Positions 19,417 to 50,944 of a stretch of 64,000 nucleotides of DNA are shown here, piece after piece. Numbering within the stretch: position 1 is the stretch's first letter; every line of letters starts with the position of its first letter. This DNA is from Chloroflexota bacterium. Its GTDB lineage: Bacteria; Chloroflexota; Anaerolineae; UBA1429. The notes beneath the pieces are model-generated. The model saw nothing but the letters and a program-made list of their open reading frames with translations, did not search any database and had not been told where the DNA came from. The stretch is from positions 10,723 to 74,722 of the forward strand of contig DAIRUQ010000002.1 in the NCBI GenBank assembly GCA_036803245.1. The letters are read 5' to 3'. A program made the position numbers and the translations under genes.

Positions 19417-19463
19417 CGGTTACTCCTTACCCTCTATCATCGTCAGCGATAGGACGTTCGAGC

Positions 19464-20303: not shown

Positions 20304-20413
20304 CTCCCCTCCCTCGGCCATCGCCGCCAGCACACCAGAATGGATAGCCACGTCGGGCGTCCCAGCCGACGGGCTCAGACCCCGCATCTGGCAACACGGC
20401 GCGCCATCCTCTC

Positions 20414-21352: not shown

Positions 21353-21377
21353 TAGCCCCCCTTTTCTCGCGACGCGG

Positions 21378-22856: not shown

Positions 22857-22964
22857 CGACCAGCTCCTTCTCTCTGCCTCGGCCCGTCTGGCCGAGACGC
22901 CTCTGGCAACGCGCTGCAACCTCATTCTACCGCTCGCACACGCGACGGCAAGGAGCGTCAGCCG

Positions 22965-24262: not shown

Positions 24263-24471
24263 GGCTGCTCCTCGTCTTGCGAGATACAAGTAAATCCTTG
24301 TGCTCAATTGTGACCGGGAACCGCCGAGGGCGCAAGCCCAGCCGTCGCCGACCCTACGTCTTGGCTCTACCGGCCAGGCGGTAACCGGGAGTGTCTCCTC
24401 CTCCGATTGACACGCCCGGAGATGGGCCTATGCTGAGTCTCGCCAATCACTGTCACCAAAGGAGGGCTATC

Positions 24472-27000
24472 ATGGGCGATAGCACGGGATCCAATAGAGG
24501 GCAGAAACCCACCGTACGCGCCACCCGTAGGCGGCGAACGACGGACAGCCAGGGCGCACCACGAGAGCGCGCGACCGCGCCTCGCAGGGAGGGCCGGCAG
24601 ACCCAGCGCACCACGTCTCAGCCAACGCCGGCCGGGAGCACCCAGAGCTCGGCTCCGCTTTCGGGCTTGGGCCAGCTGCTTCAGGGCGCCGCATCCTCAG
24701 GCGGAACGCGCCGTCCGCTGATGGGCCTTTCGCCCATCGTCATCATTCTGATCATCGTGTTCATCTGCGCAGCCCTGATCCTGTGCCGCTGCGGCGGCGG
24801 GTTGGGCGATCTGGCCGATCTCGGCCTGGGCATGGTCGATCAGGGCTCTGGCTCGCTGCTCCCTGAAGCGACGGTACCCTCCTCGCAGCCGACCGTCGCC
24901 CCCACCATCGCCAGCCAGCCGTTCGTGGTGCCGGCCGGTTCCGCCTCTGGCGACACCTGGCTAGTGATGCTCTACCAGGACGCTGACGACAAGATCCTGG
25001 AAAAGGACATCTACCTGGACCTCAACGAGGCCGAACGGGTCGGCTCGACTGAGAACGTGCGCATCGTGAGCCAGATCGACCGCTATAGCGGCGGCTATAC
25101 CGGCGATGGCAACTGGTCTAGCACGCGACGCTACTATCTGACGCAAGACCAGGATCTGACCCGTGTCGGCTCACAGCTCGTGGCCGATCTCGGCGAGCTC
25201 AACATGGCGGATCCAAACACCCTGATCGACTTTGTCACGTGGGCCGTGGAAACCTTTCCCTCGGACAAGTACGCGCTGATCATGTCGGACCACGGCATGG
25301 GCTGGCCCGGCGGCTGGACCGACCCCGATCCAGCGGTGCGCACGCAACCCAGCACGGCACTGGCCTCGGCGCTAGGCAATCAGCTCTACCTGGACGAGCT
25401 CGATGCTGCCCTGGCAGAGATCAGGCAACGCACCGGCATCGGCCAGTTCGAGCTGATCGGCATGGACGCCTGCCTGATGGCCCAGCTCGAGGTCTTTGCA
25501 GCATTGGCGCCTCACGCCCGCTACGCCGTCGGCTCGGAAGAGACCGAGCCCGCCCTGGGGTGGGCCTATACCAGCTTTCTGGGGGACTTGGCCGCCAACC
25601 CTGGCATGGACGGCGCCCAGCTCGGCCACCTGATCGTCGACAGCTATATCCGCGAGGATCAGCGGATCGTCGACGACCAAGAGCGAGCCGAACTGCTACG
25701 ACAGGGATCGCCCATGGGGGGACTCTTGGGCTTTAGCGTGCCCACGGTGGACCAGGTCGCTAGCCAGATGGAACGCGGCGTGACCTTGAGTGTGGTGGAT
25801 CTGGCCGAGGTGCCGGCGCTGGTGACCAGCGTCAACGACCTGTGCCTCACGCTGCAGGGGGCGGATCAGGCCAAGGTGGCTCAGGCCCGCAGCTATGCCC
25901 AATCGTTTACCAGCATCTTTGGTCAGCAGGTACCAGCGTCATTCATCGACCTGGGCAACTTTGTGGGGCTGCTCCAGCAGGCTCGCCTAGGTGGCACGGC
26001 CGACCAGGCCCTGGCCAACGTCTCGGGCGCGCTGCAGCGGGCCGTGATCGCCGAGACGCACGGTAGTGGCAAGCCCGGCGCCACGGGCGTCGCCGTCTAT
26101 TTCCCCAACTCGCAGCTCTATCGTACCGACGCCGCTGGTCCGGCCTCCTATGTCCCCATGGCCGACGCGCTCGCCCGGAGCTCGCTATGGGATGACTTTT
26201 TGGCCCATCACTATACAGGACGATCGTTCACAGCCGGATCTGTCGAGGCGGTGATCCCGGCCGAGAGCGAGGCTGTCACCGCTCCGGGCCAAGGCGACAG
26301 CTCGATCTCGCAGGTCCGGGCCTCGTCCTCGGTGGCCCGGCCTGGCGCACCGGTGCTGCTGAGCGCCGACATTGATGCCAGCAACTTGGGACATGTCCTG
26401 CTGTTTGCGGGCTACTATGACAGCGCTGCCAACTCGCTCTTTGTGATCGACATGGACTATCTCGAGAGCCCAAACACCCGCCAGGTCGACGGGGTCTACT
26501 ATCCCGTGTGGCCCGACGTCGAGTTCACGCTCGAGTTCGAATGGGAGCCTATCGTCTACTATATCGACGATGGCCAGGACTCTGTGTCGGCGCTCCTGAC
26601 GCCGCAAGACTATGGGGTCACCTTTGAGCAAGCGATCTACACGGTCGACGGCATCTATACGTTTGCCAGCGGCGAGACGCGAACAGCGCGACTCTATTTT
26701 GCCAATGGCAGACTACAGCGGGTGTTTGGCTTTACCGGCGATGGCACGGCAGGCGCGCCGCGTGAGATCCATCCAGAGACGGGCGACCGCTTTACCGTGG
26801 TGGAAGAGTGGCTCGATCTCGATGACCAAGGGCGCGTCATCGCGCAGGCGGTGCAGCAGGGTGGGACGCTGACCTTTGGCGATCAGATGTTCACCTGGGT
26901 CGAGCTGGACGCAGCCCCCGGCAACTATGTGGTTGGCTTTATCGCTCAGGACCTGGACGGGAACGCCAAGCAGGCCTTTACTCAGATCACCGTCCAGTGA
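24472..27000 (+). CDS. Clostripain-like (C11, clan CD) cysteine peptidase, membrane-anchored, with an Arg-rich disordered N-terminus
   Basis: ATG at 24472 with AAAGGAGGG RBS. N-terminal basic low-complexity stretch of about 80 aa, a single TM helix (IVIILIIVFICAALILC), then KYALIMSDHGMGWPGGW (His of the catalytic dyad) and ELIGMDACLMAQ (catalytic Cys) as in clostripain. A long C-terminal extension follows. Confidence 0.75.
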   Translation: MGDSTGSNRGQKPTVRATRRRRTTDSQGAPRERATAPRREGRQTQRTTSQPTPAGSTQSSAPLSGLGQLLQGAASSGGTRRPLMGLSPIVIILIIVFICAALILCRCGGGLGDLADLGLGMVDQGSGSLLPEATVPSSQPTVAPTIASQPFVVPAGSASGDTWLVMLYQDADDKILEKDIYLDLNEAERVGSTENVRIVSQIDRYSGGYTGDGNWSSTRRYYLTQDQDLTRVGSQLVADLGELNMADPNTLIDFVTWAVETFPSDKYALIMSDHGMGWPGGWTDPDPAVRTQPSTALASALGNQLYLDELDAALAEIRQRTGIGQFELIGMDACLMAQLEVFAALAPHARYAVGSEETEPALGWAYTSFLGDLAANPGMDGAQLGHLIVDSYIREDQRIVDDQERAELLRQGSPMGGLLGFSVPTVDQVASQMERGVTLSVVDLAEVPALVTSVNDLCLTLQGADQAKVAQARSYAQSFTSIFGQQVPASFIDLGNFVGLLQQARLGGTADQALANVSGALQRAVIAETHGSGKPGATGVAVYFPNSQLYRTDAAGPASYVPMADALARSSLWDDFLAHHYTGRSFTAGSVEAVIPAESEAVTAPGQGDSSISQVRASSSVARPGAPVLLSADIDASNLGHVLLFAGYYDSAANSLFVIDMDYLESPNTRQVDGVYYPVWPDVEFTLEFEWEPIVYYIDDGQDSVSALLTPQDYGVTFEQAIYTVDGIYTFASGETRTARLYFANGRLQRVFGFTGDGTAGAPREIHPETGDRFTVVEEWLDLDDQGRVIAQAVQQGGTLTFGDQMFTWVELDAAPGNYVVGFIAQDLDGNAKQAFTQITVQ

Positions 27001-27020
27001 CGTTGCGCCGGTAGGGAGGA

Positions 27021-27050
27021 GACGAGGCGGGCCTGATGGCCCGCCTCGTG
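27021..27050 (+). terminator. Terminator-like hairpin after the C11 peptidase gene
   Basis: GACGAGGCGGGCCtgatGGCCCGCCTCGTG is a 12-bp stem 20 nt after the stop. The following T-tract is weak (CGCATTTGG). Confidence 0.4.
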
Positions 27051-27122
27051 CGCATTTGGCGCCCTCCGGACCGGCAGCTTCAAAGTAGCCTCTCCGCGCG
27101 GCTCCAGGACCCCGGCATCTTG

Positions 27123-27151
27123 TTGACACTCACCGGCGCGCAACGTATTCT
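27123..27151 (+). promoter_or_regulatory. Sigma-70-type promoter (TTGACA-17nt-TATTCT) for the MoxR gene
   Basis: Direct read: TTGACActcaccggcgcgcaacgTATTCT, downstream of the hairpin that follows the C11 peptidase gene. Confidence 0.4.
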
Positions 27152-27193
27152 CAAGCTCAGGCTGACGCGGGTTCAACCATGACGAGGTGTGGC

Positions 27194-28138
27194 ATGGCGT
27201 CCTTGGCAGAGATCGGCAATCGCATCACCGAGAACGTCGAAAAGGTCATCGTCGGCAAGCATCGCGAGGTCCAGTTTGTGCTGGTGGCCATGCTCTGCCG
27301 TGGGCATGTGCTGATCGAGGATGTGCCCGGCGTCGGCAAGACGGTGCTGGCCAAGTCGTTCGCACGCTCCATCGGGTCGACCTTTAGCCGCATCCAGTTT
27401 ACGCCAGACCTCTTGCCCAGCGACATTACGGGCGTCTCGGTCTATAGCCCCAAGACGCGCGAGTTCGAGTTCCGTACCGGCCCGATCATGGCTCAGATCG
27501 TGCTGACGGACGAGATCAACCGGGCCACGCCCAAGACCCAGTCCGCCCTTCTGGAGGCGATGGAGGAGCGACAGATCACGGTAGATGAGACCACCTACCC
27601 CATGCCGGATCCCTTTCTCGTATTGGCCACGCAGAACCCGATCGAGTACGAGGGTACCTTTCCCCTGCCAGAGGCGCAGCTCGACCGCTTTCTGATGCGG
27701 ATCAGCCTGGGGCATCCCTCTCCCGAAGAGGAGATCGCCATCATGGACGCGCAGCAGCACCGCCACCCGATCGAGACCCTCGAGCAGGTGGTGACCATGG
27801 CCGAGCTGCAAGAGGCCCAGCAGGCCGTCCGCGAGGTCTATGTCGACCCAGTCATCAAGCAGTACATCGTGTCCATCGTCTCGGCGACACGGCACCACCC
27901 CGATATCTACCTGGGGGCCAGCCCCCGCGGCAGCTTGGGCTTGGTGAACACGGCACGAGCCCTATCGGCGCTAGAGGGTCGCGACTATGTGCTGCCCGAT
28001 GACATCAAGCGGCTGGCGGTGCCGGTTCTGGCCCACCGCGTCATCGTGAGCCCGGCAGCCCGCATCCGCGACGTGGACACCCGCGATGTGGTGCAAGAGG
28101 TGCTGAGCCAGACTCTGGTTCCCGGCACCAGCGCCTAG
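27194..28138 (+). CDS. MoxR-family AAA+ ATPase
   Basis: [19 protein letters not shown] Walker [23 protein letters not shown] Walker B/sensor, and a C-terminal MoxR-type lid domain. GAGGTG RBS. Confidence 0.9.
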
Positions 28139-34582: not shown

Positions 34583-34664
34583 GGGGCGGTGGCGGAATGG
34601 CAGACGCTGCGGACTTAAAATCCGCTGGATTACATCCATGAGGGTTCGAATCCCTCCCGCCCTA
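34583..34664 (+). tRNA. tRNA-Leu, anticodon UAA, type II with long variable arm; 3' CCA not encoded
   Basis: Cloverleaf folded by hand. Acceptor GGGGCGG/CCGCCCU with discriminator A. Anticodon stem GCGGA/UCCGC with loop CUUAAAA. Variable stem-loop GGAUuacAUCC. T-arm GAGGGUUCGAAUCCCUC. Confidence 0.85.
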
Positions 34665-34867
34665 CTCTTCGCGCGGCGATCACCACGGCCCTAGCAACTC
34701 TGCCTATCATAGCCTGGTGCCCCCGTCTTGCCAACGCCCCGCCTCTCGACCTGGTTCTGCCGTGGCGCGCCAGACTTGCGCGCTCTGCCTTTTGGTGCCA
34801 TGATCTGCCGAGTGCGCGTCGAGCCGCCGACCGAGGCACCGCCAACAGATCAGGGAGACCCCGATTC

Positions 34868-35848
34868 ATGCTCAAGATCGCCGAAGTGCTGCCCCCGTAC
34901 CCAACCCCCTTGTGGCGGCTGGCCCGCCAGTGCGGCCTCACCCACGTGGTGGGCGGCATGGATTTTCGGCGGGGGCTGGATGTCGACGCCGAGGCCCTGC
35001 CCTGGAGCTATACCTCGCTGCTCCACGTCAAGACGCAGTACGAGGACGCCGGGTTCCGCCTCGAGGTGCTCGAGAGCCGTCCGCCCATGCACAAGGCCAA
35101 ACTGGGCTTGCCGGGCCGCGATGAGGAGATCGAGGCGGTGCGGACCCTGATCCGCAACATGGGCGCCTTGGGCATTCCGGTCTGGTGCTATGAATGGATG
35201 CCCGTCTTTAACTGGCTGCGAACCTCGCTGGCACTCCCCACGCGAGGCGGCGCCCTGACCACTGCCTATGACCACAGGCTGATGCAGAACGCACCGCTGA
35301 CAGAGTACGGCCAAGTGACCGAAGAGTCGCTCTGGGAGAACCTGGGATACTTTCTGGATGCCGTCATCCCGGTAGCTGAGGAGGCCGGCGTCAAGTTGGC
35401 CATGCATCCCGATGATCCGCCGCTATCGCCCATTCGCGGCCTCGGACGGATCATGCGCAGCATCGACAACTACCAACGGCTAGTCGATCGCTGGCCTAGT
35501 CCCGTCAATGGCATCGCCCTCTGCCAAGGCAACTTTGCCCTCATGACCGACGATCTCCCCGCCGTGATCCGCCGTTTCGGGTCTCAAGATCGCATCTTTT
35601 TCGTCCATCTCCGCGATGTGCGCGGCACCGCCGAATGCTTTGTGGAGACGTTTCACGACGACGGACAGACCGACCTGCTGGCCTGCCTGCGCGCCTACCG
35701 CGACGTCGGCTACGAGGGCGTGCTGCGCCCCGATCACGTGCCCACCATGGAGGGCGATAGCCACAACGACCCCGCCTATTCGACGGTGGGAAGGCTCTTT
35801 GCCGTAGGCTACATCAAGGGCCTTTGCCAAGCCGTCTATGCCGACTAG
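34868..35848 (+). CDS. uxuA: Mannonate dehydratase (UxuA family)
   Basis: 326 aa. Xylose-isomerase-like TIM-barrel dehydratase with HPDDPP and RPDHVP motifs, as recalled for the UxuA family. Confidence 0.65.
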
Positions 35849-35897
35849 GCCAGGCCACGACAACTAGAACGCGTCTCATCAAGCGGAGCACTTCTGT

Positions 35898-37271
35898 ATG
35901 ACCAACCGACCCTTTGAGTCTACCCTGGCCCATGTGAACACCTTTTCGCGCCCATCGCAGCTCTGTATCACAGACATGCGCCTAACCGACATCGTCGGCG
36001 CACCCATGCACTGCATCCTGCTCAAGATCGAGACCAACCAAGGCCTGACCGGCTTTGGCGAGGTCCGTGACGGCGCCGACCGCCTTTATGCCGAGATGCT
36101 CAAGAGCCGCCTTCTGGGTGAGAACCCCTGCGATGTGGATCGGCTCTTTCGCCGCATCAAGCAGTTCGGCGGGCACGGTCGGCAGGGCGGAGGCGTCAGC
36201 GGCGTCGAGGTAGCCTTGTGGGATCTGGCCGGCAAGGCATACGGCGTGCCCGTCTACCAGATGCTTGGCGGCAAGTTCCGCGACCGCGTGCGCCTCTACT
36301 GTGATACCGATGCCCGCGGTGACCGCTCAGCTCGCGCCATGGGAGAGGCCATCACTGAGCGCGTAGAACGCGGTTTCACCTTTGCCAAGATGGATGTCGG
36401 CACCAGCCTGGTTGCACGAGAACCAGGCGCCCTCAGCGCGCCGTTAGGCCACCTGGAGGAGCTGCGCCAGGCCGCAGCCGCTACCCGGCATGCCGCAGGC
36501 ATCACGCCTGAGGACACGCGCACGGCCCGCAACCGCTGGTATGACCTCAACAACGTGCCCCATCCGTTCTGCAGCGTCCATCTCACTGAAAAGGGGCTGG
36601 ACCTGCTGGAGCAGTACGTGGCCGAGGTCCGTGCTGCGGTAGGCTACGAGTTGCCCTTGGCGGTGGATCATCTGGGCCACATCGCCATCGAAGACTGCAT
36701 TCGACTGGCGCACCGACTGGAAAAGTACAACCTCGCCTGGATGGAGGATCCCGTCCCCTGGCAGTACACGGCCCAATATCAGCGCTTGACGCAAACGAGC
36801 ACCGTGCCCATCTGCACGGGCGAGGACATCTACCTCAAGGACGCCTTCCGACCCCTGCTGGAGGGCCAGGCTGTGGCGGTCATCCATCCCGACGTGCTCA
36901 CCGTGGGCGGCATTCTGGAGACGAAAAAGGTCGGCGACCTGGCCGAGGAGCATGGCATCGCCATGGCGATTCACATGGCCGAGAGCCCCATCGGCTGCAT
37001 GGCGGCGGTGCACGCCGCAGCCGCCACGGCCAACCTCCTGGCCGTCGAGTTCCATTCGGCCGACTGCCCTTGGTGGGAGGATCTGGTCACCGGTCTGCCC
37101 GCGCCGTTGATCCAGGCCGGACATATCACCCTACCCGATGAGCCGGGCTTGGGCATCGAGTCCCTGAACGATGATGTCATCGCCGAGCATCTCGATCCCG
37201 CCATGCCCGAGCTGTGGGCCAGCACCGAGCAGTGGGATCACCGCTGGTCGCATGATAGACTGTGGAGCTAG
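35898..37271 (+). CDS. Enolase-superfamily enzyme (mandelate racemase/muconate lactonizing enzyme; possibly ManD/GalD-type acid-sugar dehydratase) with a roughly 60-aa insertion
   Basis: N-terminal capping domain. KIETNQGLTGFGE...VEVALWDLAGKAYGVPVYQMLGG is typical of MR/MLE members. 457 aa, longer than the usual about 400. Confidence 0.75.
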   Translation: MTNRPFESTLAHVNTFSRPSQLCITDMRLTDIVGAPMHCILLKIETNQGLTGFGEVRDGADRLYAEMLKSRLLGENPCDVDRLFRRIKQFGGHGRQGGGVSGVEVALWDLAGKAYGVPVYQMLGGKFRDRVRLYCDTDARGDRSARAMGEAITERVERGFTFAKMDVGTSLVAREPGALSAPLGHLEELRQAAAATRHAAGITPEDTRTARNRWYDLNNVPHPFCSVHLTEKGLDLLEQYVAEVRAAVGYELPLAVDHLGHIAIEDCIRLAHRLEKYNLAWMEDPVPWQYTAQYQRLTQTSTVPICTGEDIYLKDAFRPLLEGQAVAVIHPDVLTVGGILETKKVGDLAEEHGIAMAIHMAESPIGCMAAVHAAAATANLLAVEFHSADCPWWEDLVTGLPAPLIQAGHITLPDEPGLGIESLNDDVIAEHLDPAMPELWASTEQWDHRWSHDRLWS

Positions 37272-37316
37272 GAAAGTAGCATCCGGATCCGCGATCCCCA
37301 TAGGAGGCCAAGCGCC

Positions 37317-38165
37317 ATGAAGTTCAGTTGCCGAGAGGATATCATCCAGCTAACGCCTTTGTGGACGGGCGAGCGTTTTGACGACGGCAGGCCCCGCGTC
37401 CCTGATGACATTGTCGAGCGGATGGTCTATGTCACCACCGAAGAGGCCTGGGGCGTGCTCTGGCGGCACGGGTTCCAGTACCAGTTCGAGGGCAACTGGC
37501 TCAACCTCCACCCCGACCAGGTGCTGGTGGGCCGCGCGGTGACGGGCGTCTTTGTGCCCAAGCGACCCGACCTCCACGATGGCCTGATGAAGTACGGCCA
37601 CGAGCAAGAGGGCCGCGTGGGAGAGATGAATTCCTGGGTGATCCAGACCCTGGTCAAGGACGATGTCATCGTCATCGACCTGTTCGGCAAGATCCGCAGC
37701 GGCACTTTTTCGGGAGGCAACCTCTCTACGGCCATCGCTGCCCGCACCCAGCGAGGACAGGTGATCTATGGCGGGATCCGCGACGCCCAACAGATCCTCC
37801 AGATCCCTGATTTCTGCACGTTCTGCCGCGGCATCGATCCCACCGGCATCGACGACGTGACGTTGGTAGGCATGAACGTGCCCTGTCGCATCGGCAACGC
37901 CACCTGCCTGCCCGGCGACATTGTCCTGGGCACCTACTCGGGCATTCTGTTCATCCCGCCCCATCTGGCCCAAGAGGTAGTCGAGCACTCGGAGACGATG
38001 CGCCTGCGTGAGGCCTTTGGCTTTACCCGGCTGCGCGAGGGAGTCTATACCTCCAGCCAGATGGATACTGCCTGGACCGACGAGATCGAGGCGGACTATG
38101 CCGGCTGGCTGGCCCAACGCACCGACGAGGAAAAGGCGCGCATCCTTTGGGAGGAGCGCAGCTAG
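37317..38165 (+). CDS. RraA-family protein (4-hydroxy-4-methyl-2-oxoglutarate aldolase / oxaloacetate decarboxylase-like)
   Basis: Core resembles RraA/MenG-like proteins (GDVIVID...GGNLSTAIAARTQRGQVIYGGIRD). 282 aa with an N-terminal extension. Confidence 0.55.
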   Translation: MKFSCREDIIQLTPLWTGERFDDGRPRVPDDIVERMVYVTTEEAWGVLWRHGFQYQFEGNWLNLHPDQVLVGRAVTGVFVPKRPDLHDGLMKYGHEQEGRVGEMNSWVIQTLVKDDVIVIDLFGKIRSGTFSGGNLSTAIAARTQRGQVIYGGIRDAQQILQIPDFCTFCRGIDPTGIDDVTLVGMNVPCRIGNATCLPGDIVLGTYSGILFIPPHLAQEVVEHSETMRLREAFGFTRLREGVYTSSQMDTAWTDEIEADYAGWLAQRTDEEKARILWEERS

Positions 38166-38276
38166 TAGAATCGAACAAGCCCACGAGGGGCGAGACCGCC
38201 CATGCGGCAGACCCAAGGGCGAGTTGGTTGATCGCATCGGTTCCTTTCGCTGATGGCACTTTGGTTAGGAGGAAAC

Positions 38277-39068
38277 ATGGCCTTCAGGACACCGGCAGAG
38301 ATCGTGGCTAGCGCAGAGCAGGCGGCTTGTAGCAAGACCGCGCTAAGCGTGCCCAGAGTTCTAGTTCTCGGCTTTCTGGCGGGCGCCTACATCGGTTTTG
38401 GGGGGCTACTGGCCATCGTCGTGGGCCGAGGTAGCCCGGCGCTTCTGGCCGCAAACCCCGGCTTGGCCAAGTTCCTGTTCGCTGCCGTGTTCCCCGTCGG
38501 GATTGTGATGGTTGTGATTGCCGGATCGGAGCTGTTTACCGGCAACTGCAGCGTGATCCTCCCCGGCTGTCTATGCGGGCGAACCTCCTGGGCCTCCATG
38601 CTCCGGAACTGGGTGTTCGCGTATGTGGGCAACCTGCTCGGGTCACTCTTTATGGCGATCTTTATGGCCTACCTGACCGGCATCGTGCGTGGCGGTGGCC
38701 TAGGCGAGGCCACGGCGGGCATCGCCCAAGCCAAAGTGGAACTAGACTTTTGGACGCTACTGCTGCGCGGGATCGGGTGCAACTGGCTGGTGGGCCTAGG
38801 CATCTGGCTCGCCCTGGCGGCCGATGATGTCGCGGGCAAGATCTTGGCGCTCTGGTTCCCCGTCATGGCGTTTGTCGCCATCGGCTTTGAGCACTCGGTA
38901 GCCAACATGTTCTTTATCCCCCTGGGCATGCTGAACGGCGCCGAGGCCAGCATCGGTGATTTCTTACTCCATCTGATCCCCGTCACCCTCGGCAACATCG
39001 TCGGGGGGTCCGTGATGGTCGGCGGCATCTATGGGTGGCTGTACGGCTCCCGACGGGCCAAGTCCTAG
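38277..39068 (+). CDS. Formate/nitrite transporter (FNT) family channel
   Basis: ATG at 38277 with AGGAGG RBS. LAGAYIGFGG, the GSELFTGNC FNT signature and multiple TM helices. Confidence 0.85.
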   Translation: MAFRTPAEIVASAEQAACSKTALSVPRVLVLGFLAGAYIGFGGLLAIVVGRGSPALLAANPGLAKFLFAAVFPVGIVMVVIAGSELFTGNCSVILPGCLCGRTSWASMLRNWVFAYVGNLLGSLFMAIFMAYLTGIVRGGGLGEATAGIAQAKVELDFWTLLLRGIGCNWLVGLGIWLALAADDVAGKILALWFPVMAFVAIGFEHSVANMFFIPLGMLNGAEASIGDFLLHLIPVTLGNIVGGSVMVGGIYGWLYGSRRAKS

Positions 39069-39100
39069 CCAACCCCCGACCGCGACTCTACTTCCTGCTC

Positions 39101-39135
39101 GGGGGCGCATCCGCCCGAGACGCCCCCGAGCAGAA
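39101..39135 (+). terminator. Hairpin after the FNT transporter gene (possible terminator or processing site), splitting the catabolic cluster into two transcription units
   Basis: GCTCGGGGGCG-13nt-CGCCCCCGAGC is an 11-bp inverted repeat with no clear U-tract. A strong promoter follows 110 nt downstream. Confidence 0.3.
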
Positions 39136-39245
39136 CGCGCCCAGCCGTGTCCCGAGGCTCTGTTTCCGCGCCATCATGCCCTGACGGCAGTCCCCGCGCT
39201 CTCGACATCATGGCGCTGGAACCCCTGAGCGCTCACATCCTGCGA

Positions 39246-39275
39246 TTGACACGCCTTGAAGCGGCCCGCTATAAT
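39246..39275 (+). promoter_or_regulatory. Near-consensus sigma-70 promoter (TTGACA-18nt-TATAAT) ahead of the cyclophilin-like/MhpD/TIM/FAD sub-operon
   Basis: Direct read: TTGACAcgccttgaagcggcccgcTATAAT, 30 nt upstream of the GGGAGG RBS of the 39306 gene. Confidence 0.5.
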
Positions 39276-39305
39276 CGTTCCCGCCGTTGCAGACGGGAGG
39301 TTGTT

Positions 39306-39689
39306 ATGCGTACCATTCAGATCACCGCCGGCGACGTGACCGTGATCGCCGAGCTGGACGATTCCAAAACCGCCGACGCCATCTGGCAGGCGCTCCCCAT
39401 CGAGGCCCGCGCCAACACCTGGGGCGACGAGATCTACTTTGGCATCGATGTGCACCTGGACGCCGAGGATCCGCGCGAGGTGGTCGATCTCGGGGACGTC
39501 GGCTACTGGCCGCCGGGGCATGCCTTTTGCCTCTTTTTCGGACGCACGCCCATGAGCCTGGGCAACGAGATCCGCCCGGCGTCGCCTGTGAACGTTTTCG
39601 GCCGCATCCAGGGGGATGCGACGGTTCTGCGCGAGGTCGCTTCGGGGGCCACGGTCAGGATCGAGCCCGCCGATGAATCCGCATCCTGA
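39306..39689 (+). CDS. Cyclophilin-like-fold protein (DUF3830-like), function unknown
   Basis: 127 aa, GGGAGG RBS, resembles small bacterial cyclophilin-like proteins as I recall them. Follows a near-consensus promoter. Confidence 0.5.
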   Translation: MRTIQITAGDVTVIAELDDSKTADAIWQALPIEARANTWGDEIYFGIDVHLDAEDPREVVDLGDVGYWPPGHAFCLFFGRTPMSLGNEIRPASPVNVFGRIQGDATVLREVASGATVRIEPADESAS

Positions 39690-39716
39690 CCGCCAACAGT
39701 AGCATTGGAGAGCATC

Positions 39717-40493
39717 ATGACCCTTGAAAAAGCACGAACCATCCTAAAGCGCGCCGAGGCCGAACGACAGGCCATCGGCCCCGTGTCCGATCTCTTTGAG
39801 GGAGGGCTGACCCTGGATCAGGCGCACGATATCTGCGAGGCCAGCATCGCCGAGCGCATCGCCGCGGGCGACCCGCTACGCGGCTTTAAAGTGGGTTTTA
39901 CCAACATCCCCGTCCGCGACAAGATGGGGCTGCCCGATTCGACCTATGGCTATCTGTTGGAGAGCATGGTGCTGCCTTCGGGTGGCACGCTGGCCATGAG
40001 CGAGCTGATCGCCCCGCGCATCGAGTGCGAGATCTGCTTTCGCCTGGCCAAGCCGCTCTCGGGCAAAGGGCTGTCGATTGAGCAGGTGCTCGACGCCACC
40101 GATGCCGTGGCCGCCGCCTTTGAAATCTGCGATGCGCGCATCCGCGACTGGAAGTGCCCCTATCCGGACTTTTTCGCGGACAATGGCTTTTCGGCGCGGA
40201 TCGTCCTCGAGGGCAGCTGGCATGACGTACGCGACGTGGACCTCTTGGGCGAGTCGGTCGTTCTGAGCCAGGACGGCGTGCAGATCGCCGAGGGGCGTGG
40301 CGAGATGGCCATGGGCCACCCAGCCAACGCCGTCTCCTGGCTGGCTGGCAAGCTGGCCGACCGCGGCAAGGGTCTGGAGGCAGGTCAGCTCGTCATGACG
40401 GGCACGCTGACGCCGATCCTGACCATCGAAGCCGACAGCACCTACGAGGCCGCTTTCTCGACGCTGGGCACCGTCACCAAGGCCTTTGCCTAG
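39717..40493 (+). CDS. 2-keto-4-pentenoate hydratase / 2-oxo-hepta-3-ene-1,7-dioate hydratase family (MhpD/HpcG-like, FAH fold)
   Basis: ATG at 39717 with GGAGAG RBS. LRGFKVGFTNIPVRDKMGL...IAPRIECEICFRL is typical of MhpD-like hydratases/decarboxylases. Confidence 0.75.
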   Translation: MTLEKARTILKRAEAERQAIGPVSDLFEGGLTLDQAHDICEASIAERIAAGDPLRGFKVGFTNIPVRDKMGLPDSTYGYLLESMVLPSGGTLAMSELIAPRIECEICFRLAKPLSGKGLSIEQVLDATDAVAAAFEICDARIRDWKCPYPDFFADNGFSARIVLEGSWHDVRDVDLLGESVVLSQDGVQIAEGRGEMAMGHPANAVSWLAGKLADRGKGLEAGQLVMTGTLTPILTIEADSTYEAAFSTLGTVTKAFA

Positions 40494-40504
40494 GAGCGAG
40501 GCCC

Positions 40505-41320
40505 ATGGGCACGGCCCAGATCAAGCCATCCATTTGTAGCATCGCCTGGCGCGACGAGCCGATCGAGGTAGTTCTGCCGATCGCGGCCCAGGCGGGCTAT
40601 CTTGGCGTTGAGGTGTGGCAGCCTCACGTGCAGCGCCATCTGGAGTCGCACGGCAGCCTGGAGACGCTCGGTGCACTCCTGGCGCGACACCAGTTGGCCG
40701 TGCCCATGGTGAGCGGGTACTATGACCTGGCGCTGCAAACCCAGGAAAGCCTGGACGCTCTGGCGACCCATGCACAGCAAGCCGTGGCGCTGGGCGCTCC
40801 CCTCTTGCGCATGTTCACGGGCGGCGAGTCGTCCCGTGAGGCCACCCTCTCCGTATGGAGCCAGGTCGTCGCGGCGCTACAACAGGCCTGCGATCAGCTC
40901 GCGCCGATGGGGCTGGCCATCGCCTTGGAGACCCACGAGGGCAACCTGCACGACGCCACCCCCAGTACGCTTCGCCTGCTAGAGCGCGTGGATCGCCCCA
41001 ACCTCTGCATCAACCTGGATATCTTTAACCTGTATGCCATCGGCGAGGATCCTTGCGAGGCCTGGCTGCGGTTGCGCCCCCACGTGCGCATGATCCACCT
41101 CAAAAACGCCGTGCGCCAGGGCCAGAGCCGTCGCCTGGGCATCCCGCTAACCGAGGGCGAGATGCCGTATAGACCGTTTCTGGATGCAGTTGGCGGTAGC
41201 GACTATGACAGGTTCGCCTCGGTAGAGTGGTTCGGACCCGAGCCAGCCCAAGCGGCCGTTGGCGAAATCAGCTATCTCCGCCAGGAGCTGGGAGGTCGCC
41301 TTGCGCAACGGCCCGCCTGA
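40505..41320 (+). CDS. Sugar phosphate isomerase/epimerase (xylose isomerase-like TIM barrel)
   Basis: 271 aa. GYLGVEVW...LALETHEGNLHD...RMIHLKN pattern of the AP_endonuc_2 family. Confidence 0.75.
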   Translation: MGTAQIKPSICSIAWRDEPIEVVLPIAAQAGYLGVEVWQPHVQRHLESHGSLETLGALLARHQLAVPMVSGYYDLALQTQESLDALATHAQQAVALGAPLLRMFTGGESSREATLSVWSQVVAALQQACDQLAPMGLAIALETHEGNLHDATPSTLRLLERVDRPNLCINLDIFNLYAIGEDPCEAWLRLRPHVRMIHLKNAVRQGQSRRLGIPLTEGEMPYRPFLDAVGGSDYDRFASVEWFGPEPAQAAVGEISYLRQELGGRLAQRPA

Positions 41321-43124
41321 TCGCTGCGACGTCCTGATCATCGGCGGCGGCGGGGCGGCGCTGCGGGCGGCCATCGCTGCTCACGAGGCGAATCGCTCGC
41401 TGGGCATCCTGCTCGTCACCAAGGGTACCCTCGGCGCCAGCGGCGTAACCGCCACGGCTTGCTCTGACCGCATGGCGTTTCACGCCACCCTCCCCACCAC
41501 CGAGCCTGGCGGCCCCGACGCCTGGCGCTATCATGCTGACGATATCTATCGCATCGGCGGCTATGTGAGCGACTGGGATCTGGCCGAGGTGCTGGCGCGT
41601 GAGGCCGCGGGAGCCTTTACCTACCTCGAGTCGCTAGGCGTGCCCTGGGCACGCAACCCCGACGGCAGCCCAGCGCAGTTTGTCACCGATGGCTCAGCCT
41701 ATGCCCGCGCCTGCTACACGGGGCCACACACCGCCAACGAGATCGAGGCCGCCCTGCTGGCGCGGTTGCGGCAGCTTCCCGTTCGCGTGCGCGAACACAC
41801 CATGGTCGCCGAGCTGCTGCGCGATAGCAACGGCGACCTAAGCGGCGCCATCCTCGTATCCGAAGCAGCGCCGGTAGCCGCCATCGTCTCCGCTCCTACA
41901 GTAATCCTGGCGACCGGGGGCGCCGGTCGTGCCTTTGCGGTCAACGTCTTCCCGCCCGACTGCACCGGCGACGGCTATGCCATGGCGTTTCGGGCCGGCG
42001 CCGAGCTGGTCAATCTAGAGTTCATCCAGTTTGGCCTCTGTTCTCTGGCGACGGGGCTGGCCTGCTCGGGAAGCATGATGCGGGCGCTGCCGCGACTGGT
42101 CAACGACCTGGATGAGCCGTTCTTGCAACGCTATCTCGGCCCCGAGCAGCGCAATACGGCTTGCGATCTTCTCTACGCCAAAGGCGCCAGCTGGCCCGTC
42201 TCCTGGGAAGAGCCCACCCACATCATCGACATCGCGGTCTCGGCCGAGCTAGCCCGCGGCCGGCGCGTGTACCTGGACTATGGACGGAATCCGGTCGGGT
42301 ATGCACCGACCGCGCTGGCCCAGCAGATTCGCCGTTGGTACCAGGATCGGGGCTATGCGCTCACCCCCACGGACACCCCGCTGGATCGGTTGCGGGCCAT
42401 CAATCCCCAGTCGATCGCCTGGCTGGCCGAACGGGGCCTGGATCTCGCTCGCGACGCCGCCATCGAAATTGCACCGGCGGCCCAGCACTTTCAGGGGGGC
42501 GTCAAGATCGGCCCAGATGGCGGCACCAGCGTACCAGGCCTCTATGCCGCCGGCGAGGCCGCAGGAGGACAGCACGGCGCCAACCGGCCGGGCGGCAACG
42601 CTCTGCTGGATAGCCAGGTCTTTGGGGGGATCGCGGGGCGATCAGCCGCGGCGAGAGCCTCGGCCACGGCGACGCCGGAGACGCCGGCGCACACAGACCC
42701 GCTGGAGGTCATCGCCAGCATGACCGGCGCACGGGGAGCATCGCCCACGGCCGTGATCGAGCAGGTTGGCCAGTGCATGTCAGCCACCTGCGCCGTCCAC
42801 CGAACCAAAGCGGGGCTCTTGCAGGCTCTGGCCAAGCTCGACGCACTGCTGCGCCAGGGTGTGGCCTTGGATGCGAATCAGCCCAACCTCTCGCTGGAGG
42901 CGATCAACGTGCTTCAGGTGGCCAGCCTGGTGATTCGAGCCGCGCTGGGCCGCGATGAAAGCCGCGGTCCCCATCTCCGCTTTGCCGACGAGCAAAGCAC
43001 CGCGCCGCACCCGCGCGATGACGCGCGCTGGTGTCGCTACCAGGTGCTAGAGGCCGATCGCGTTGGACGCCCCTGGCGTGGTGTCCGCATCGCTATACGA
43101 GAACCCGTTCGTAAGCCTGGCTAG
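41259..43124 (+). CDS. FAD-dependent oxidoreductase of the succinate dehydrogenase/fumarate reductase/L-aspartate oxidase flavoprotein family
   Basis: CDVLIIGGGGAALRAAIAA dinucleotide-binding motif and a C-terminal GLYAAGEAAGGQHGANRPGGNALLDSQVFG motif. Start is uncertain; the listed ATG overlaps the upstream gene by 62 nt. Confidence 0.8.
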   Translation: MAKSAISARSWEVALRNGPPDRCDVLIIGGGGAALRAAIAAHEANRSLGILLVTKGTLGASGVTATACSDRMAFHATLPTTEPGGPDAWRYHADDIYRIGGYVSDWDLAEVLAREAAGAFTYLESLGVPWARNPDGSPAQFVTDGSAYARACYTGPHTANEIEAALLARLRQLPVRVREHTMVAELLRDSNGDLSGAILVSEAAPVAAIVSAPTVILATGGAGRAFAVNVFPPDCTGDGYAMAFRAGAELVNLEFIQFGLCSLATGLACSGSMMRALPRLVNDLDEPFLQRYLGPEQRNTACDLLYAKGASWPVSWEEPTHIIDIAVSAELARGRRVYLDYGRNPVGYAPTALAQQIRRWYQDRGYALTPTDTPLDRLRAINPQSIAWLAERGLDLARDAAIEIAPAAQHFQGGVKIGPDGGTSVPGLYAAGEAAGGQHGANRPGGNALLDSQVFGGIAGRSAAARASATATPETPAHTDPLEVIASMTGARGASPTAVIEQVGQCMSATCAVHRTKAGLLQALAKLDALLRQGVALDANQPNLSLEAINVLQVASLVIRAALGRDESRGPHLRFADEQSTAPHPRDDARWCRYQVLEADRVGRPWRGVRIAIREPVRKPG

Positions 43125-43142: not shown

Positions 43143-43883
43143 TCACTCCAGCCTCTCCAGCGCCCGCCGCACTTTTTGGACGCAGGCGTCAGTCTGGCAC
43201 ATGATCTCTGCCCGCGAGAGGTACAGCCACACCCAGGCCATCTGGTCAACGTCGGCAGAGGCATAAGCCAGCGTCGCTTCAGACACGGTCTCGCCGGCAC
43301 AGTCGATGGCCACGCCGCCGCGACGCGCCGGCACCGCCACATCCGCCACACAGTGCCCGTTCTCGTGCAAGAGCACGTGGTCGCGATAGGCATCAAGCCC
43401 CTCTTCGTGCAGCGCCTGCCAGAGCCGATCCTTGGCCGTCTCGCGCAGCCAGAGATCGTTGATCTCGTGCGCCGCCAACAGCCGATCCAGGGTGGTATGG
43501 ATAAAGGTGACGCGGCGTAGCTTGGCCGCGGCGATGGGCCGGGGAAGGCTGTGGAGAGGGCCGAGCTCCAGCTTCAGGTAGCGCTCCTCGGCCCGGGGAT
43601 GGTCGGGCTCATCGGGCAAGAGCTCTCGTCGCGTGGCCAGCCGATACCGCTCGACGGACGCATAGTAGCGAATGCTACAGCCCATCTCGCCAAATCGCGA
43701 GGGATGGTAAAACGCCAGATACTCGGCGCCTACCCGTTCCGGCGCGCGGGCCAGCGGGATGCGGTACCACCGCTCGTCTAGCACGCGCTGCCAGTCCTCC
43801 AGGCGCGGCACGATCGCCACCAGCACCCGCTCGGGATCTCGACCTTCCGCCTCTTCGAGGTACGCCTCGTCCCAGTCCATCAT
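43143..43883 (-). CDS. Hypothetical protein; the C-terminal region may adopt a restriction-endonuclease-like fold
   Basis: Start at MMDWDEAY directly preceded by GGAGGG. No confident family. The C-terminal segment (HENGHCVADVAVPARRGGVAIDCAGE) loosely resembles DUF559/Vsr-like proteins. Confidence 0.5.
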   Translation of the reverse strand: MMDWDEAYLEEAEGRDPERVLVAIVPRLEDWQRVLDERWYRIPLARAPERVGAEYLAFYHPSRFGEMGCSIRYYASVERYRLATRRELLPDEPDHPRAEERYLKLELGPLHSLPRPIAAAKLRRVTFIHTTLDRLLAAHEINDLWLRETAKDRLWQALHEEGLDAYRDHVLLHENGHCVADVAVPARRGGVAIDCAGETVSEATLAYASADVDQMAWVWLYLSRAEIMCQTDACVQKVRRALERLE

Positions 43884-45180: not shown

Positions 45181-45218
45181 CACCTCGGTAGACTGCACCG
45201 CGAATGAGAGGATATAGC

Positions 45219-46598
45219 ATGGAACAGCTCGAGCTCGTTCGTCAGATCCTGGATGCCTTGCCCCCCCTAGACCATTCTGTGGGCGACCGCCTGCCCTTGT
45301 ACTTGTGGGGCCTACGGGGGATGCCAACCTCCAGCGAAACCATGGCCCGTGAACTGCTTCAGGAGGCCGCTGCGCGAGGGTTGGCCTTTGTGGCGGTGTG
45401 GGACCACGATAATCTGGCCGAGTCGGTGGCCGAGGCCCTCAAGCTGGGACGTCTTCAGCAAGAGCTCGGCCTCAGCATAGGTGCCGACGCCATCAAGCCG
45501 CTTTACGCCTTTTGCGATGGCAGCCCAGAGACGGCCCATGTGGACGAGGCCGGCGAGCCGTTCTTTGATCATTCCCATAGCCCGAACCGCCCCATCGGCT
45601 GCCCGTTTGCCCTAGGCCATCGCTATGCAGAGATCTCTGGCCGCATCCACGCCTTTGCGCAAGCCTACCAAGATGCTGGCCTCCCGCTGGATTTCGTCTA
45701 CAGCGACTGGGAGATCGACGGCCCGCTGGAATGGAACGATGCCTTGGAGCACATCCGCCGCTGTACCCGCTGCCAGGCCGAACTGAGCGACCTGGATGAT
45801 TTCGGTCATGTGCAGCGCACCCTGCGGCGCATCCGGGCCAAGATGCAACGCGAGTGCTTCGCCCAGCCTATCCTGCAGCGCTATCCACGCGCTCTGGTGG
45901 GCAACTATGCCGTGTACAACCACGGCGGGATGCGCTACTGGTACGACTATTTCGAGCGCGTCAATCTCGACCTGCCGCATACATGCGATCAGCGTGAGCC
46001 CTCCCGCCCCTGGGCCCACGAATACCCCGAAACCGGCTATACCTTTGGCATGCCCGTCCTCTACACCTGGTATCGCACGTATGACTGGTATGACTTTGAG
46101 AACGCCGACTATCACTGGTTCTACAACATGCTCAAGGTGGCCAGTAACGCTGGACGCCACAAGCCAGCGGGCCACACTTTGATCACCTTTGTGCACCATA
46201 CGCTCACCGATCCTCCTGAAGGGGGTGCCGAGCCGCATATTCAGCCGATGAGCGTCGAGGCCTACCAGGAGCTCCTCTGGCACGCGCTCCTTCGTGGTCA
46301 CGACGCGTTCTTTTCCTGGAGCCCCAACGACGTCGCGGTACACGAGGCGGTGGTCGCACAGCAAGTCTATAACCAGTCACTGGCCTATGGTGATTTCCTC
46401 GCGCACGGGCAGCCTGTGACTTTTGCCATCCCCCCAGAGCCAGGCACGGTGGTCTCGGCTCTGCGCGCAGGCGGTCGCCTCTTGGTGCGGCGCACCGACT
46501 TTGGGGGCGATGGCCGGCCCCACTCCCTCGTCGTCGATGGCCACCGCATCGAGGTGCCAGCGGCGCCGGGTGTCTGCCAGATCCTCGATCTGCGCTAG
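45219..46598 (+). CDS. Hypothetical protein (about 460 aa), no recognisable family
   Basis: ATG at 45219 with GAGAGG RBS, downstream of a near-consensus TTGACA-like/TATAAT promoter. Rich in W/Y/H. No motif identified. Confidence 0.6.
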   Translation: MEQLELVRQILDALPPLDHSVGDRLPLYLWGLRGMPTSSETMARELLQEAAARGLAFVAVWDHDNLAESVAEALKLGRLQQELGLSIGADAIKPLYAFCDGSPETAHVDEAGEPFFDHSHSPNRPIGCPFALGHRYAEISGRIHAFAQAYQDAGLPLDFVYSDWEIDGPLEWNDALEHIRRCTRCQAELSDLDDFGHVQRTLRRIRAKMQRECFAQPILQRYPRALVGNYAVYNHGGMRYWYDYFERVNLDLPHTCDQREPSRPWAHEYPETGYTFGMPVLYTWYRTYDWYDFENADYHWFYNMLKVASNAGRHKPAGHTLITFVHHTLTDPPEGGAEPHIQPMSVEAYQELLWHALLRGHDAFFSWSPNDVAVHEAVVAQQVYNQSLAYGDFLAHGQPVTFAIPPEPGTVVSALRAGGRLLVRRTDFGGDGRPHSLVVDGHRIEVPAAPGVCQILDLR

Positions 46599-50825: not shown

Positions 50826-50898
50826 GGGCCCATAGCTCAGTGGTAAGAGCGACCGGCTCATAACCGGTTGGTCCCTGGTTCGAGCCCAGGTGGGCCCA
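50826..50898 (+). tRNA. tRNA with CAU anticodon (elongator tRNA-Met, or tRNA-Ile2 if lysidinylated); 3' CCA not encoded
   Basis: Acceptor GGGCCCA/UGGGCCC with a G1-C72 pair (so not an initiator), discriminator A. Anticodon stem ACCGG/CCGGU with loop CUCAUAA. T-arm CCUGGUUCGAGCCCAGG. Confidence 0.85.
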
Positions 50899-50944
50899 CT
50901 CCCCTATCACCAGCGACACCACAATCCAAGGACTCGAGGCATCC

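Follow-up and report, generated by a model that had tools for sequence, protein, structure and literature searches.

Eight co-oriented genes (g1 to g8), at positions 34,868 to 43,124 of a 64,000-nucleotide stretch of the Chloroflexota assembly GCA_036803245.1 (contig DAIRUQ010000002.1; the whole stretch is called the window), are most readily explained as two neighboring, separately conserved catabolic modules that flank a formate/nitrite transporter (FNT) gene and serve uncharacterised sugar-acid (2-keto-3-deoxy acid) routes, a reading to which we assign a probability of about 0.55. Module A comprises g1, g2 and g3, and module B comprises g5 to g8. A preliminary description, made from the sequence alone, had treated the run as one putative catabolic pathway. 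The features on which the argument draws are the following.

34583–34665 (+): tRNA-Leu(UAA), found by ARAGORN and Rfam; a synteny landmark 5' of the cluster, outside its function
34868–35848 (+): g1, module A, 326 aa; short UxuA-family TIM barrel (PF03786), putative acid-sugar dehydratase
35898–37271 (+): g2, module A, 457 aa; enolase-superfamily MR/MLE protein (MR_MLE_N and MR_MLE_C), putative acid-sugar dehydratase
37317–38165 (+): g3, module A, 282 aa; RraA fold (PF03737), putative 2-keto-3-deoxy-acid lyase (aldolase or dehydratase/decarboxylase)
38277–39068 (+; alternative start 38253): g4, FNT channel (PF01226)
39095–39133 (+): hairpin found by RNA folding, putative end or stabilizer of the upstream transcript
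39246–39275 (+): consensus sigma-70 promoter TTGACA-18-TATAAT, sequence match 12/12
39306–39689 (+): g5, first gene of module B, 127 aa; cyclophilin-like, TM1367/AF2241 family (PF04126/PF18050)
39717–40493 (+): g6, module B; MhpD/HpcG/NahK-like FAH fold by PDB homology, putative metal-dependent 2-oxo-enoate hydratase or decarboxylase
40505–41320 (+): g7, module B; xylose-isomerase-like TIM barrel (AP_endonuc_2), AsbF-like, putative metal-dependent beta-eliminating dehydratase
41301–43124 (+): g8, last gene of module B, 607 aa; SdhA/FrdA/NadB-like FAD flavoprotein (FAD_binding_2 and Succ_DH_flav_C)

The eight co-oriented genes after tRNA-Leu that had been described were recovered by open reading frame (ORF) analysis, ARAGORN and Rfam, and all eight ORFs are real genes, each having relatives 56–91% identical in other genomes. 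Pfam and NCBIfam bore out the families proposed earlier with the exception of the DUF3830 label for g5, which is absent from its Pfam matches at E ≤ 0.01; the protein belongs to PF04126/PF18050 instead. The spacing is tight at most junctions, as had been claimed, with intergenic distances in gene order of 49, 45, about 90–110, 237, 27 and 11 bp followed by a 20-bp overlap, but not at the 237-bp gap between g4 and g5. Likewise, the length of g2 (457 aa), previously called oversized, is a family trait, its relatives measuring 452–465 aa. A 180-aa GTG-initiated ORF from 39147 is an over-extension of g5, and a minus-strand gene converges on g8, 18 bp past its end. The reported lack of any transcription factor, kinase or ATP-binding cassette (ABC) or TRAP transporter holds for the cluster and for about 8 kb on either side.

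Separate conservation of the two gene sets

Gene neighborhoods were surveyed around g5 in 80 species-representative genomes and around g8, via alignment A2, in 80 metagenome contigs. Further neighborhoods were taken from selected g3 and g2 orthologues, and every surveyed locus (L numbers below) was scored by tblastn with the eight cluster proteins. The exact locus is present in GCA_050949385.1 and in five metagenome contigs, and the nearest relatives of g3, g5 and g2 are labeled as Anaerolineae or Chloroflexota metagenome-assembled genomes (MAGs). The full eight-gene order was found only in the source species (L003–L008) and in one relative, L098, in which g1, g2, g3 and g4 are 83, 78, 90 and 78% identical.

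Elsewhere, the two sets occur apart. Another Anaerolineae MAG, L097, carries g1-g2-g3 (g1 78% identical) without g4–g8 and with a short-chain dehydrogenase/reductase (SDR) gene in front, and Paenibacillus hamazuiensis (L181) carries the same trio at 57, 67 and 56% identity, again without g4–g8, so that g3 adjoins g2 in L097, L098 and L181 alike. The genes g5-g6-g7-g8 are contiguous in L017, L100 and L101 and are interrupted in L011, L012, L026 and L115, where the inserts are a split transketolase, a divergent Rrf2 regulator and a DUF362 domain fused to the TIM barrel. In L100, L101, L026 and L115, g5–g8 are present and g1–g4 are absent from the available sequence. Orthologues of g1, g2 or g3 stand beside the anchor gene in none of the 160 loci; two g8 loci hold a distant (25–28%) MR/MLE homologue of g2. 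To a large extent, the genes thus belong to separately conserved neighborhoods, g1–g3 in L097 and L181 and g5–g8 in L100, L101, L026 and L115, an outcome that the preliminary description had itself named as speaking against its proposal.

Between the two sets lies g4, which matches PF01226 at 272 bits, barely passes TIGR00790 (233.9 against a cutoff of 232.3) and fails the FocA (TIGR04060; 171.2 vs 290.1) and NirC (112.7 vs 293) profiles. The gene occupies the equivalent position in L098. In L017, a partial g4 relative precedes g5 by 4.3 kb, and L020 has an FNT relative (63%) some 8 kb away from g5, encoded on the other strand; relatives are otherwise absent among the 160 g5- and g8-anchored loci and also from L097 and L181.

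The g4/g5 junction itself carries two signals. The promoter is the sole perfect match in 9 kb, falls inside the only long gap and is followed by a GGGAGG Shine-Dalgarno sequence and the g5 ATG (39306); four relatives (L100, L017, L101 and L026) keep its −35/−10 pair 5' of g5, and L011 has it at a shifted position, the flanks having diverged in all five. The hairpin, a perfect, GC-rich 13-bp stem without a U-tract, begins 26 nt past the g4 stop codon, and the RNA fold of 39066–39150 (−35.8 kcal/mol, z = −3.84) is matched in stability by none of 200 shuffled sequences. Between the genes, Rfam recognized neither a riboswitch nor any other described RNA, its only hits being two tRNAs, and no convincing terminator structure follows g8. 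From this arrangement, g1–g3 are probably transcribed together with g4, and modules A and B are probably transcribed separately. Module B reads as a separate unit with its own predicted sigma-70 promoter, inherited within the Anaerolineae.

Several points weigh against the two-module reading. The g5 promoter pair is not recognizable in L098, the relative that keeps the eight-gene order, and, given that order and the compatible chemistries, one transcript or a functional coupling of both modules is possible in this lineage. L017 starts inside the FNT gene upstream of g5, so that its coverage ends there. Part of the g5–g8 adjacency could be inherited Anaerolineae synteny rather than shared function; genes for Rrf2, SEC-C, HAD and GalK proteins also travel with g5–g8, and the contexts and fusion partners of g5 relatives vary widely, with TenA, ThiE, RpiB, lectin and MOSC among them. 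On the enzymatic side, g3 lacks the complete metal motif of active RraA-type aldolases. Finally, a sugar or sugar-acid transporter, an SDR, a kinase and an aldehyde-handling enzyme are all missing from the window, and neither module is therefore a complete pathway alone.

Some of these points would favor a single eight-gene operon encoding one linear pathway, the alternative that survives best and that we nonetheless consider unlikely. Here, g1 and g2 would yield a 2-keto-3-deoxy acid and g7 and g8 a 2-oxo-enoate, which g6 would rehydrate and g3 would cleave to pyruvate, the FNT channel providing uptake or export. The co-orientation and closeness of the genes, the order kept in L098 without a recognizable g5 promoter and the FNT gene near g5 in L017 agree with it, as do the g6 hydratase and aldolase-like g3, which resemble a classical hydratase-aldolase pair, and the 2-keto-3-deoxy-acid chemistry indicated for both modules. 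A single operon, however, would be expected to lack an internal promoter or terminator and to be inherited as eight genes. What we find is a conserved 12/12 promoter and a hairpin in the gap between g4 and g5, gene sets that are independent elsewhere, with no g1–g3 orthologue beside the anchor at any of the 160 loci, and g3 orthologues that also occur alone. The proposal of a single pathway thus retains the gene order of L098 and loses ground to the separate modules and to the promoter and hairpin that divide g4 from g5.

Adjacency without any shared function, in which unrelated genes were joined by rearrangement near tRNA-Leu and g5–g8 are a mere syntenic remnant, seems to us rather improbable too, and a little more so than the single operon. 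Local rearrangement is indeed visible in the tRNA-Leu/glycosyltransferase block, which is inverted relative to g5 in L011, L020 and L022; g5 accompanies g6 in only 6 of 80 loci and g8 accompanies g5 in 9 of 80, and the housekeeping genes GlmS and a CofD-PGM fusion stand between the FNT gene and g5 in L017. Against this, the g1-g2-g3 trio is kept across phyla, at least four diverged genomes keep g5–g8 contiguous, their reading frames overlapping or almost touching, and pairs of a TIM-barrel gene with g8 recur in the distant lineages L127, L129, L136 and L148.

Rearrangement does account for how the two modules came to lie side by side. Because the tRNA-Leu block is inverted in relatives, the present adjacency is best attributed to chromosomal rearrangement; in L097, tRNA-Leu lies 6 kb upstream of module A. 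All eight genes have the same third-codon-position GC content (GC3) as housekeeping genes, a host-like composition, and this, together with the lack of attachment-site repeats, favors chromosomal rearrangement over a mobile island. An island at tRNA-Leu was accordingly rejected: no integrase gene was found, nor any meaningful direct repeat, and the 3' end of the tRNA does not recur as an att-like copy. A plasmid or phage origin was rejected as well, since at the nucleotide level plasmids match over only 350 nt of g2, in MR/MLE genes of Rhizobium and Sinorhizobium; a plasmid search with g8 gave no relative that reached 32% identity. The missing regulator is likewise explained by rearrangement: in relatives, module B is accompanied by Rrf2 and module A by GntR, AraC or MarR regulators.

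Module A and its proposed chemistry

The first protein of module A is a clear member of the UxuA family, matching PF03786 at 307.9 bits (E 1e-91) in two stretches and UxuA relatives in the PDB at E 1e-52. It passes NF003027 (239.8 vs a cutoff of 191) and remains below the uxuA equivalog TIGR00695 (177.5 vs 199.55). Unlike UxuA structures (about 360–394 aa), g1 has only 326 aa, some 60 aa fewer, and the hexuronate-catabolism genes uxaC, uxuB, kdgK and eda are absent from the window flanks and from L097, L098 and L181.

The second protein, g2, belongs to the superfamily of ManD and has both the capping domain (MR_MLE_N, 5e-10) and the barrel domain (MR_MLE_C, 1.2e-49). Its best NCBIfam profile is galactonate dehydratase, at 197.1 bits below the cutoff of 311; ManD follows at 140 bits (cutoff 550), and the remaining isofunctional groups (RhamD, TalrD/GalrD, GlucD, AraD) score lower. 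The nearest PDB structure, 2qq6, has no assigned function. Family members share 64–78% identity with g2 in Anaerolineae, Paenibacillus, Cohnella and Alicyclobacillus, against about 60% in Rhizobium. In Anaerolinea thermolimosa, the g2 orthologue (67%) has an NAD-dependent dehydrogenase on one side and a PfkB kinase on the other.

The third protein, g3, matches PF03737 at 61.6 bits and, among PDB structures, 5x15 at 1.7e-11 and the HMG/CHA aldolase 3noj (HMG, 4-hydroxy-4-methyl-2-oxoglutarate; CHA, 4-carboxy-4-hydroxy-2-oxoadipate) at 9.5e-8. Its Arg155-Asp156 pair is invariant in 13 orthologues and falls, in the alignment, on the VRD of 3noj, the catalytic pair being Arg123-Asp124 in the P. 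putida enzyme. Active RraA-type aldolases are reported by Mazurkewich and colleagues (2014) to carry the metal motifs D-x20-R-D or G-x20-R-D-x2-E/D. The motif of g3 reads [G/A]-N-x19-R-D-x2-Q, with Gly or Ala at position −21, an invariant Asn135 at −20 and an invariant Gln159 at +3. The protein remains far below both the LigK/PcmE equivalog TIGR02798 (60.3 vs 304.5) and the RraA RNase E regulator profile NF006875 (22.3 vs 136).

The RraA-fold enzymes LigK/ProA, Yer010Cp/TtRraA and FlDet share with g3 the PF03737 fold and the Arg-Asp pair, but g3 is longer (282 aa), with N- and C-terminal extensions, and only distantly related to 3noj. FlDet, which converts 2-keto-3-deoxy-glucarate (PMC8563752), acts on a keto-deoxy sugar acid, and g3 is in turn genomically linked to acid-sugar dehydratases. 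Orthologues of g3 (71–83%) also stand alone among unrelated genes; one lies beside GH42 and GH36 galactosidases in L016, and another beside an SDR, a cupin and a GFO gene in L015. Together with the best profile match of g2, the galactosidases of L016 provide a weak lead toward a galactonate-type substrate for module A.

We propose that module A would remove water from an aldonic or uronic acid, giving a 2-keto-3-deoxy (4-hydroxy-2-oxo) acid, which the RraA-fold enzyme would cleave to pyruvate and an aldehyde or, like FlDet, dehydrate and decarboxylate. The SDRs found beside module A in relatives would derive the acid from an imported sugar, and the FNT channel would carry a small anionic product of fermentation, for example formate or lactate. 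In the divergon of L181, the trio is accompanied by a pair of SDR genes, an aldo-keto reductase gene, a CUT1-type sugar ABC importer and regulators of the GntR/FCD and AraC types. These SDRs, reductase and importer in relatives, taken with the FlDet precedent, support an oxidative, non-phosphorylative route.

Known routes of this kind (the L-rhamnose LRA1-4, D-galactonate De Ley-Doudoroff and Dahms-type pathways) pair an enolase-superfamily dehydratase with a subsequent pyruvate aldolase. Module A resembles them in combining an enolase-superfamily dehydratase with a putative 4-hydroxy-2-oxo-acid lyase, to which its relatives add SDR, aldo-keto reductase, ABC importer and GntR genes. It differs from them in that its lyase has the RraA fold rather than the DHDPS, HpcH or KDPG-aldolase fold, that a second, UxuA-like dehydratase is always present and that the window has no lactonase or dehydrogenase.

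Two replicons were considered as parallels and set aside. Rhizobium p42e (L001/L002) offers a weak one, with a g2 orthologue at 60%, an RraA protein 26% identical to g3 and no UxuA-like gene. The region 3270–14507 of L001 (Rhizobium etli p42e) contains, besides the g2 orthologue, three more MR/MLE paralogues, the distant RraA, a GntR regulator and a sugar ABC transporter; it is another uncharacterised acid-sugar cluster. The RraA homologue of a Chondrinema plasmid (40%) belongs to an unrelated SusC/D locus with pyridoxal-phosphate and amidohydrolase enzymes and was not informative.

Module B and the flavoprotein family of g8

Module B opens with g5, a typical member of the TM1367/AF2241 family (PF04126, formerly DUF369), for which structures have been solved and no function is known (PMC2954229). 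The protein matches PF04126 at 157 bits (E 2.2e-46) and also PF18050, and its PDB matches are 2ka0, 1zx8 and 2nnz (TM1367 at E 2.5e-28, AF2241 at about 1e-28). It is 60–75% identical across phyla (Chloroflexota, Bacillota, Methylomirabilota/Rokubacteria, Armatimonadota and others) and has no constant neighbor, and it adjoins g6 and/or g8 in L017, L019, L022, L024, L026, L051, L100, L101, L106, L113 and L115–L117. A Rosetta-stone search for fusion partners returned C-type lectin, RpiB/LacAB, MOSC, metallophosphoesterase and ThiE domains, which indicate no single function. By eye, TenA-like genes neighbor g5 in 9 of 82 loci, Ldh_2-like genes in 11 and Rrf2-type regulators in 7, and an Rrf2 regulator near g5 is Pfam-annotated in L009–L012.

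The next protein, g6, is 63–91% identical beside g5 in relatives. It matches MhpD (1sv6 and 2wqt) at 7.6e-37 over residues 2–257, as well as NahK and HpcG, and contains ECE and EICD segments, putatively the metal-binding motifs of the family. It scores below all NCBIfam equivalogs (dmpE 179 vs 408.8, dmpH 163 vs 350.6, HpaH 157 vs 351.5, MhpD 152.8 vs 350) and, unlike MhpD, HpcG and NahK, is not located beside a meta-cleavage dioxygenase, a dehydrogenase or a DmpFG-type aldolase.

Over its full length, g7 aligns with the 3-dehydroshikimate dehydratase AsbF (3dx5; E 1.6e-28). Taking as reference the 11 active-center residues listed for AsbF in PMC9324987, g7 keeps eight (Tyr70, Arg102, Glu142, His144, Asp172, His198, Lys200 and Glu253), among them the metal ligands Glu142, Asp172 and Glu253 and the catalytic His144. 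The three changes are His175 to Asn, the loss of Phe211 in a 13-residue deletion and Tyr217 to Arg. Unlike AsbF, g7 has no siderophore or quinate context. The g7-type TIM barrel carries an N-terminal DUF362 fusion in L011/L012 (13948–15879) and L026 (9465–11390). In these Anaerolineae, the g5-g6 and g7-g8 pairs are set apart by a split transketolase together with a divergent Rrf2 regulator.

The last protein of the module, g8, has the two Pfam domains of SdhA, FrdA and NadB (FAD_binding_2 at 163.5 bits and Succ_DH_flav_C at 47.6 bits), their FAD-binding motifs and the C-terminal RDESRGPH motif. All equivalogs failed, the best being TfrA (295 vs 718), with NadB at 192 vs 452.75. In FrdA, His232, Thr244, Glu245 and Arg248 are substrate-binding or catalytic residues, and His44 is the covalent-FAD site of quinol:fumarate reductase. 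Aligned to E. coli FrdA outside the unaligned region around Arg287, g8 keeps His355 and Arg390 as His396 and Arg429, and it replaces His44, His232, Thr244, Glu245 and Arg248 with Gly48, Gly245, Ser256, Gly257 and Met260. The protein lacks a covalent-FAD histidine, and a family-specific, cysteine-rich GLCS...LACSGSMMRALPR segment takes the place of the four substrate-site residues.

The genomic company of g8 is equally distinct. No gene for an Fe-S or membrane-anchor subunit adjoins it, and neither an SdhB/FrdB Fe-S subunit nor nadA/nadC was found among the recurrent neighbors of the 80 g8 loci, in the annotated loci or in the window flanks. Orthologues of g8 in the 80 metagenome loci are 49–77% identical. 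In place of Fe-S and anchor subunits, relatives pair with a zinc-dependent alcohol dehydrogenase (Zn-ADH) and an FMN/4Fe-4S protein resembling Old Yellow Enzyme (OYE). Across the 80 loci, the neighbors of g8 relatives (49–62%) include Zn-ADH in 42, OYE in 33, GFO/IDH/MocA in 21, TctA in 15 (or TRAP instead), PfkB in 15, KDPG (2-keto-3-deoxy-6-phosphogluconate) aldolase in 11 and LarA in 8. Most of these relatives stand in a fixed order: a tripartite tricarboxylate (TTT) or TRAP transporter, GFO/IDH/MocA, cupin, Zn-ADH, g8, OYE-like protein, PfkB, KDPG aldolase and LarA-like protein.

This operon, apparently undescribed and strongly conserved, was seen in L160, L162, L169, L172, L179 and about 40 more of L100–L179, from sediment and bioreactor metagenomes. 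Its transporter is TctCBA or TRAP DctPQM, a second Zn-ADH follows the LarA-like protein, and the OYE-like protein of an inspected representative has, read by eye, a Cys-rich 4Fe-4S-like C-terminal motif. From the operon context, the g8 family is linked to a route that turns an imported carboxylate into 2-keto-3-deoxygluconate (KDG) or KDPG, and not to fumarate/aspartate chemistry or aromatic degradation. By these sequence comparisons, the labels L-aspartate oxidase and fumarate reductase are very probably wrong for g8-type proteins.

Module B would convert another carboxylate, of the keto-/deoxy-sugar-acid or cyclitol type. We suggest that g8 would catalyze a flavin-dependent dehydrogenation or reduction, g7 an AsbF-like metal-dependent beta-elimination of water and g6 the hydration or decarboxylation of a 2-oxo-enoate, with g5 serving as an accessory protein. 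The comparisons also suggest that module B may itself have been assembled from two gene pairs, g5-g6 and g7-g8.

A hydroaromatic or aromatic route, from quinate or shikimate via 3-dehydroshikimate to protocatechuate through g7, followed by the g6 hydratase or decarboxylase and an HMG/CHA-type aldolase step by g3, would suit the kinship of g7 with AsbF (its best solved relative, with 8 of 11 residues kept, including His144), of g6 with MhpD, NahK and HpcG and, distantly, of g3 with HMG/CHA aldolase, but it is very unlikely: a ring-cleaving dioxygenase, a quinate/shikimate dehydrogenase and an aromatic-acid transporter are absent from the window and the related loci examined, g7 has lost AsbF His175, Phe211 and Tyr217, which may line the product-ring pocket, g3 has no D-x20-R-D motif and scores 60 bits against the LigK equivalog, whose cutoff is 304.5, g6 fails every meta-cleavage equivalog, and the partner enzymes in relatives are of sugar type. 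The meta-cleavage appearance of g3 and g6 is probably a misleading superfamily resemblance.

The aromatic meta-cleavage and small-organic-acid leanings of the preliminary description find no echo in the contexts of relatives, where SDRs, CUT1 ABC importer, PfkB, KDPG aldolase, GFO/IDH/MocA and LarA genes indicate sugars and sugar acids instead. Its statement that the combination matches no textbook pathway is upheld, none of the eight proteins reaching an NCBIfam equivalog threshold in the profile search. In the literature, we found no described pathway that combines RraA with the enolase superfamily, or LarA with KDPG aldolase, TTT and OYE; the only relevant precedent is FlDet. A bolder version of the two-module reading, which we put forward tentatively and consider doubtful, is that both modules would be undescribed routes: module A a cross-phylum, non-phosphorylative one for a sugar or sugar acid, whose carbon-carbon lyase would be an RraA-fold enzyme with a new Asn/Gln variant of the metal site alongside the UxuA-like and enolase-type dehydratases, and the g8 family a new SdhA/NadB-like clade with a rebuilt active site acting on sugar-derived carboxylates, teaming with an AsbF-like dehydratase in Anaerolineae and, in many other bacteria of sediments and bioreactors, with Zn-ADH and OYE as well as KDG kinase, KDPG aldolase and LarA.

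Other genes of the window and significance

Directly 3' of g8, two conserved hypothetical genes without a Pfam match, at 43143–43880 (−; about 245 aa) and 45204–46598 (+; about 459 aa), flank a Na+/Ca2+ exchanger gene. In L017, ORFs of 259 and 344 aa (both −) follow g8 and resemble the window hypotheticals in size and orientation. The nearest signaling gene, for a hybrid response-regulator/GAF/histidine-kinase protein, lies 14 kb from the cluster at 57424–58998 (+). The primary sigma factor RpoD is encoded at 52346–53587 (−), and tRNA-Met lies at 50826–50899.

Farther upstream, 18238–24335 (−) encodes a DUF6807 protein, a second xylose-isomerase-like TIM barrel, a metallo-beta-lactamase-fold protein, a sulfatase and an M24 peptidase, possibly carbohydrate-processing genes whose order recurs in the metagenome contig L180. 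An 869-aa clostripain-family C11 peptidase followed by a MoxR-type AAA ATPase occupies 24391–28138 (+). Besides, 61363–63192 (−) encodes a RACo-type reductive activator of corrinoid proteins (Fer2 and RACo domains), which suggests corrinoid-dependent methyl-transfer metabolism in this organism.

The novelty of the locus is moderate, in that known families, seven of them of known enzyme or channel type, occur in undescribed combinations. Automatic annotation would call these proteins mannonate dehydratase, RNase E regulator and L-aspartate oxidase or fumarate reductase. As judged from the alignments, the active-site features of g3-type and g8-type proteins depart from these annotated namesakes. 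The RraA-fold protein tied to acid-sugar dehydratases and the widespread SdhA/NadB-like flavoprotein are families worth characterizing, and P. hamazuiensis, with its trio, transporter and regulators, provides a culturable proxy for module A.

Anaerolineae are abundant, mostly uncultured fermenters of digesters and sediments whose carbohydrate metabolism is known mainly from annotation, and the analysis resolves a confusing eight-gene run of this group into two testable units. If the proposed chemistry is correct, these units would represent new entry routes into 2-keto-3-deoxy-acid metabolism; otherwise, the locus would be a case of ordinary chromosomal catabolic clustering.

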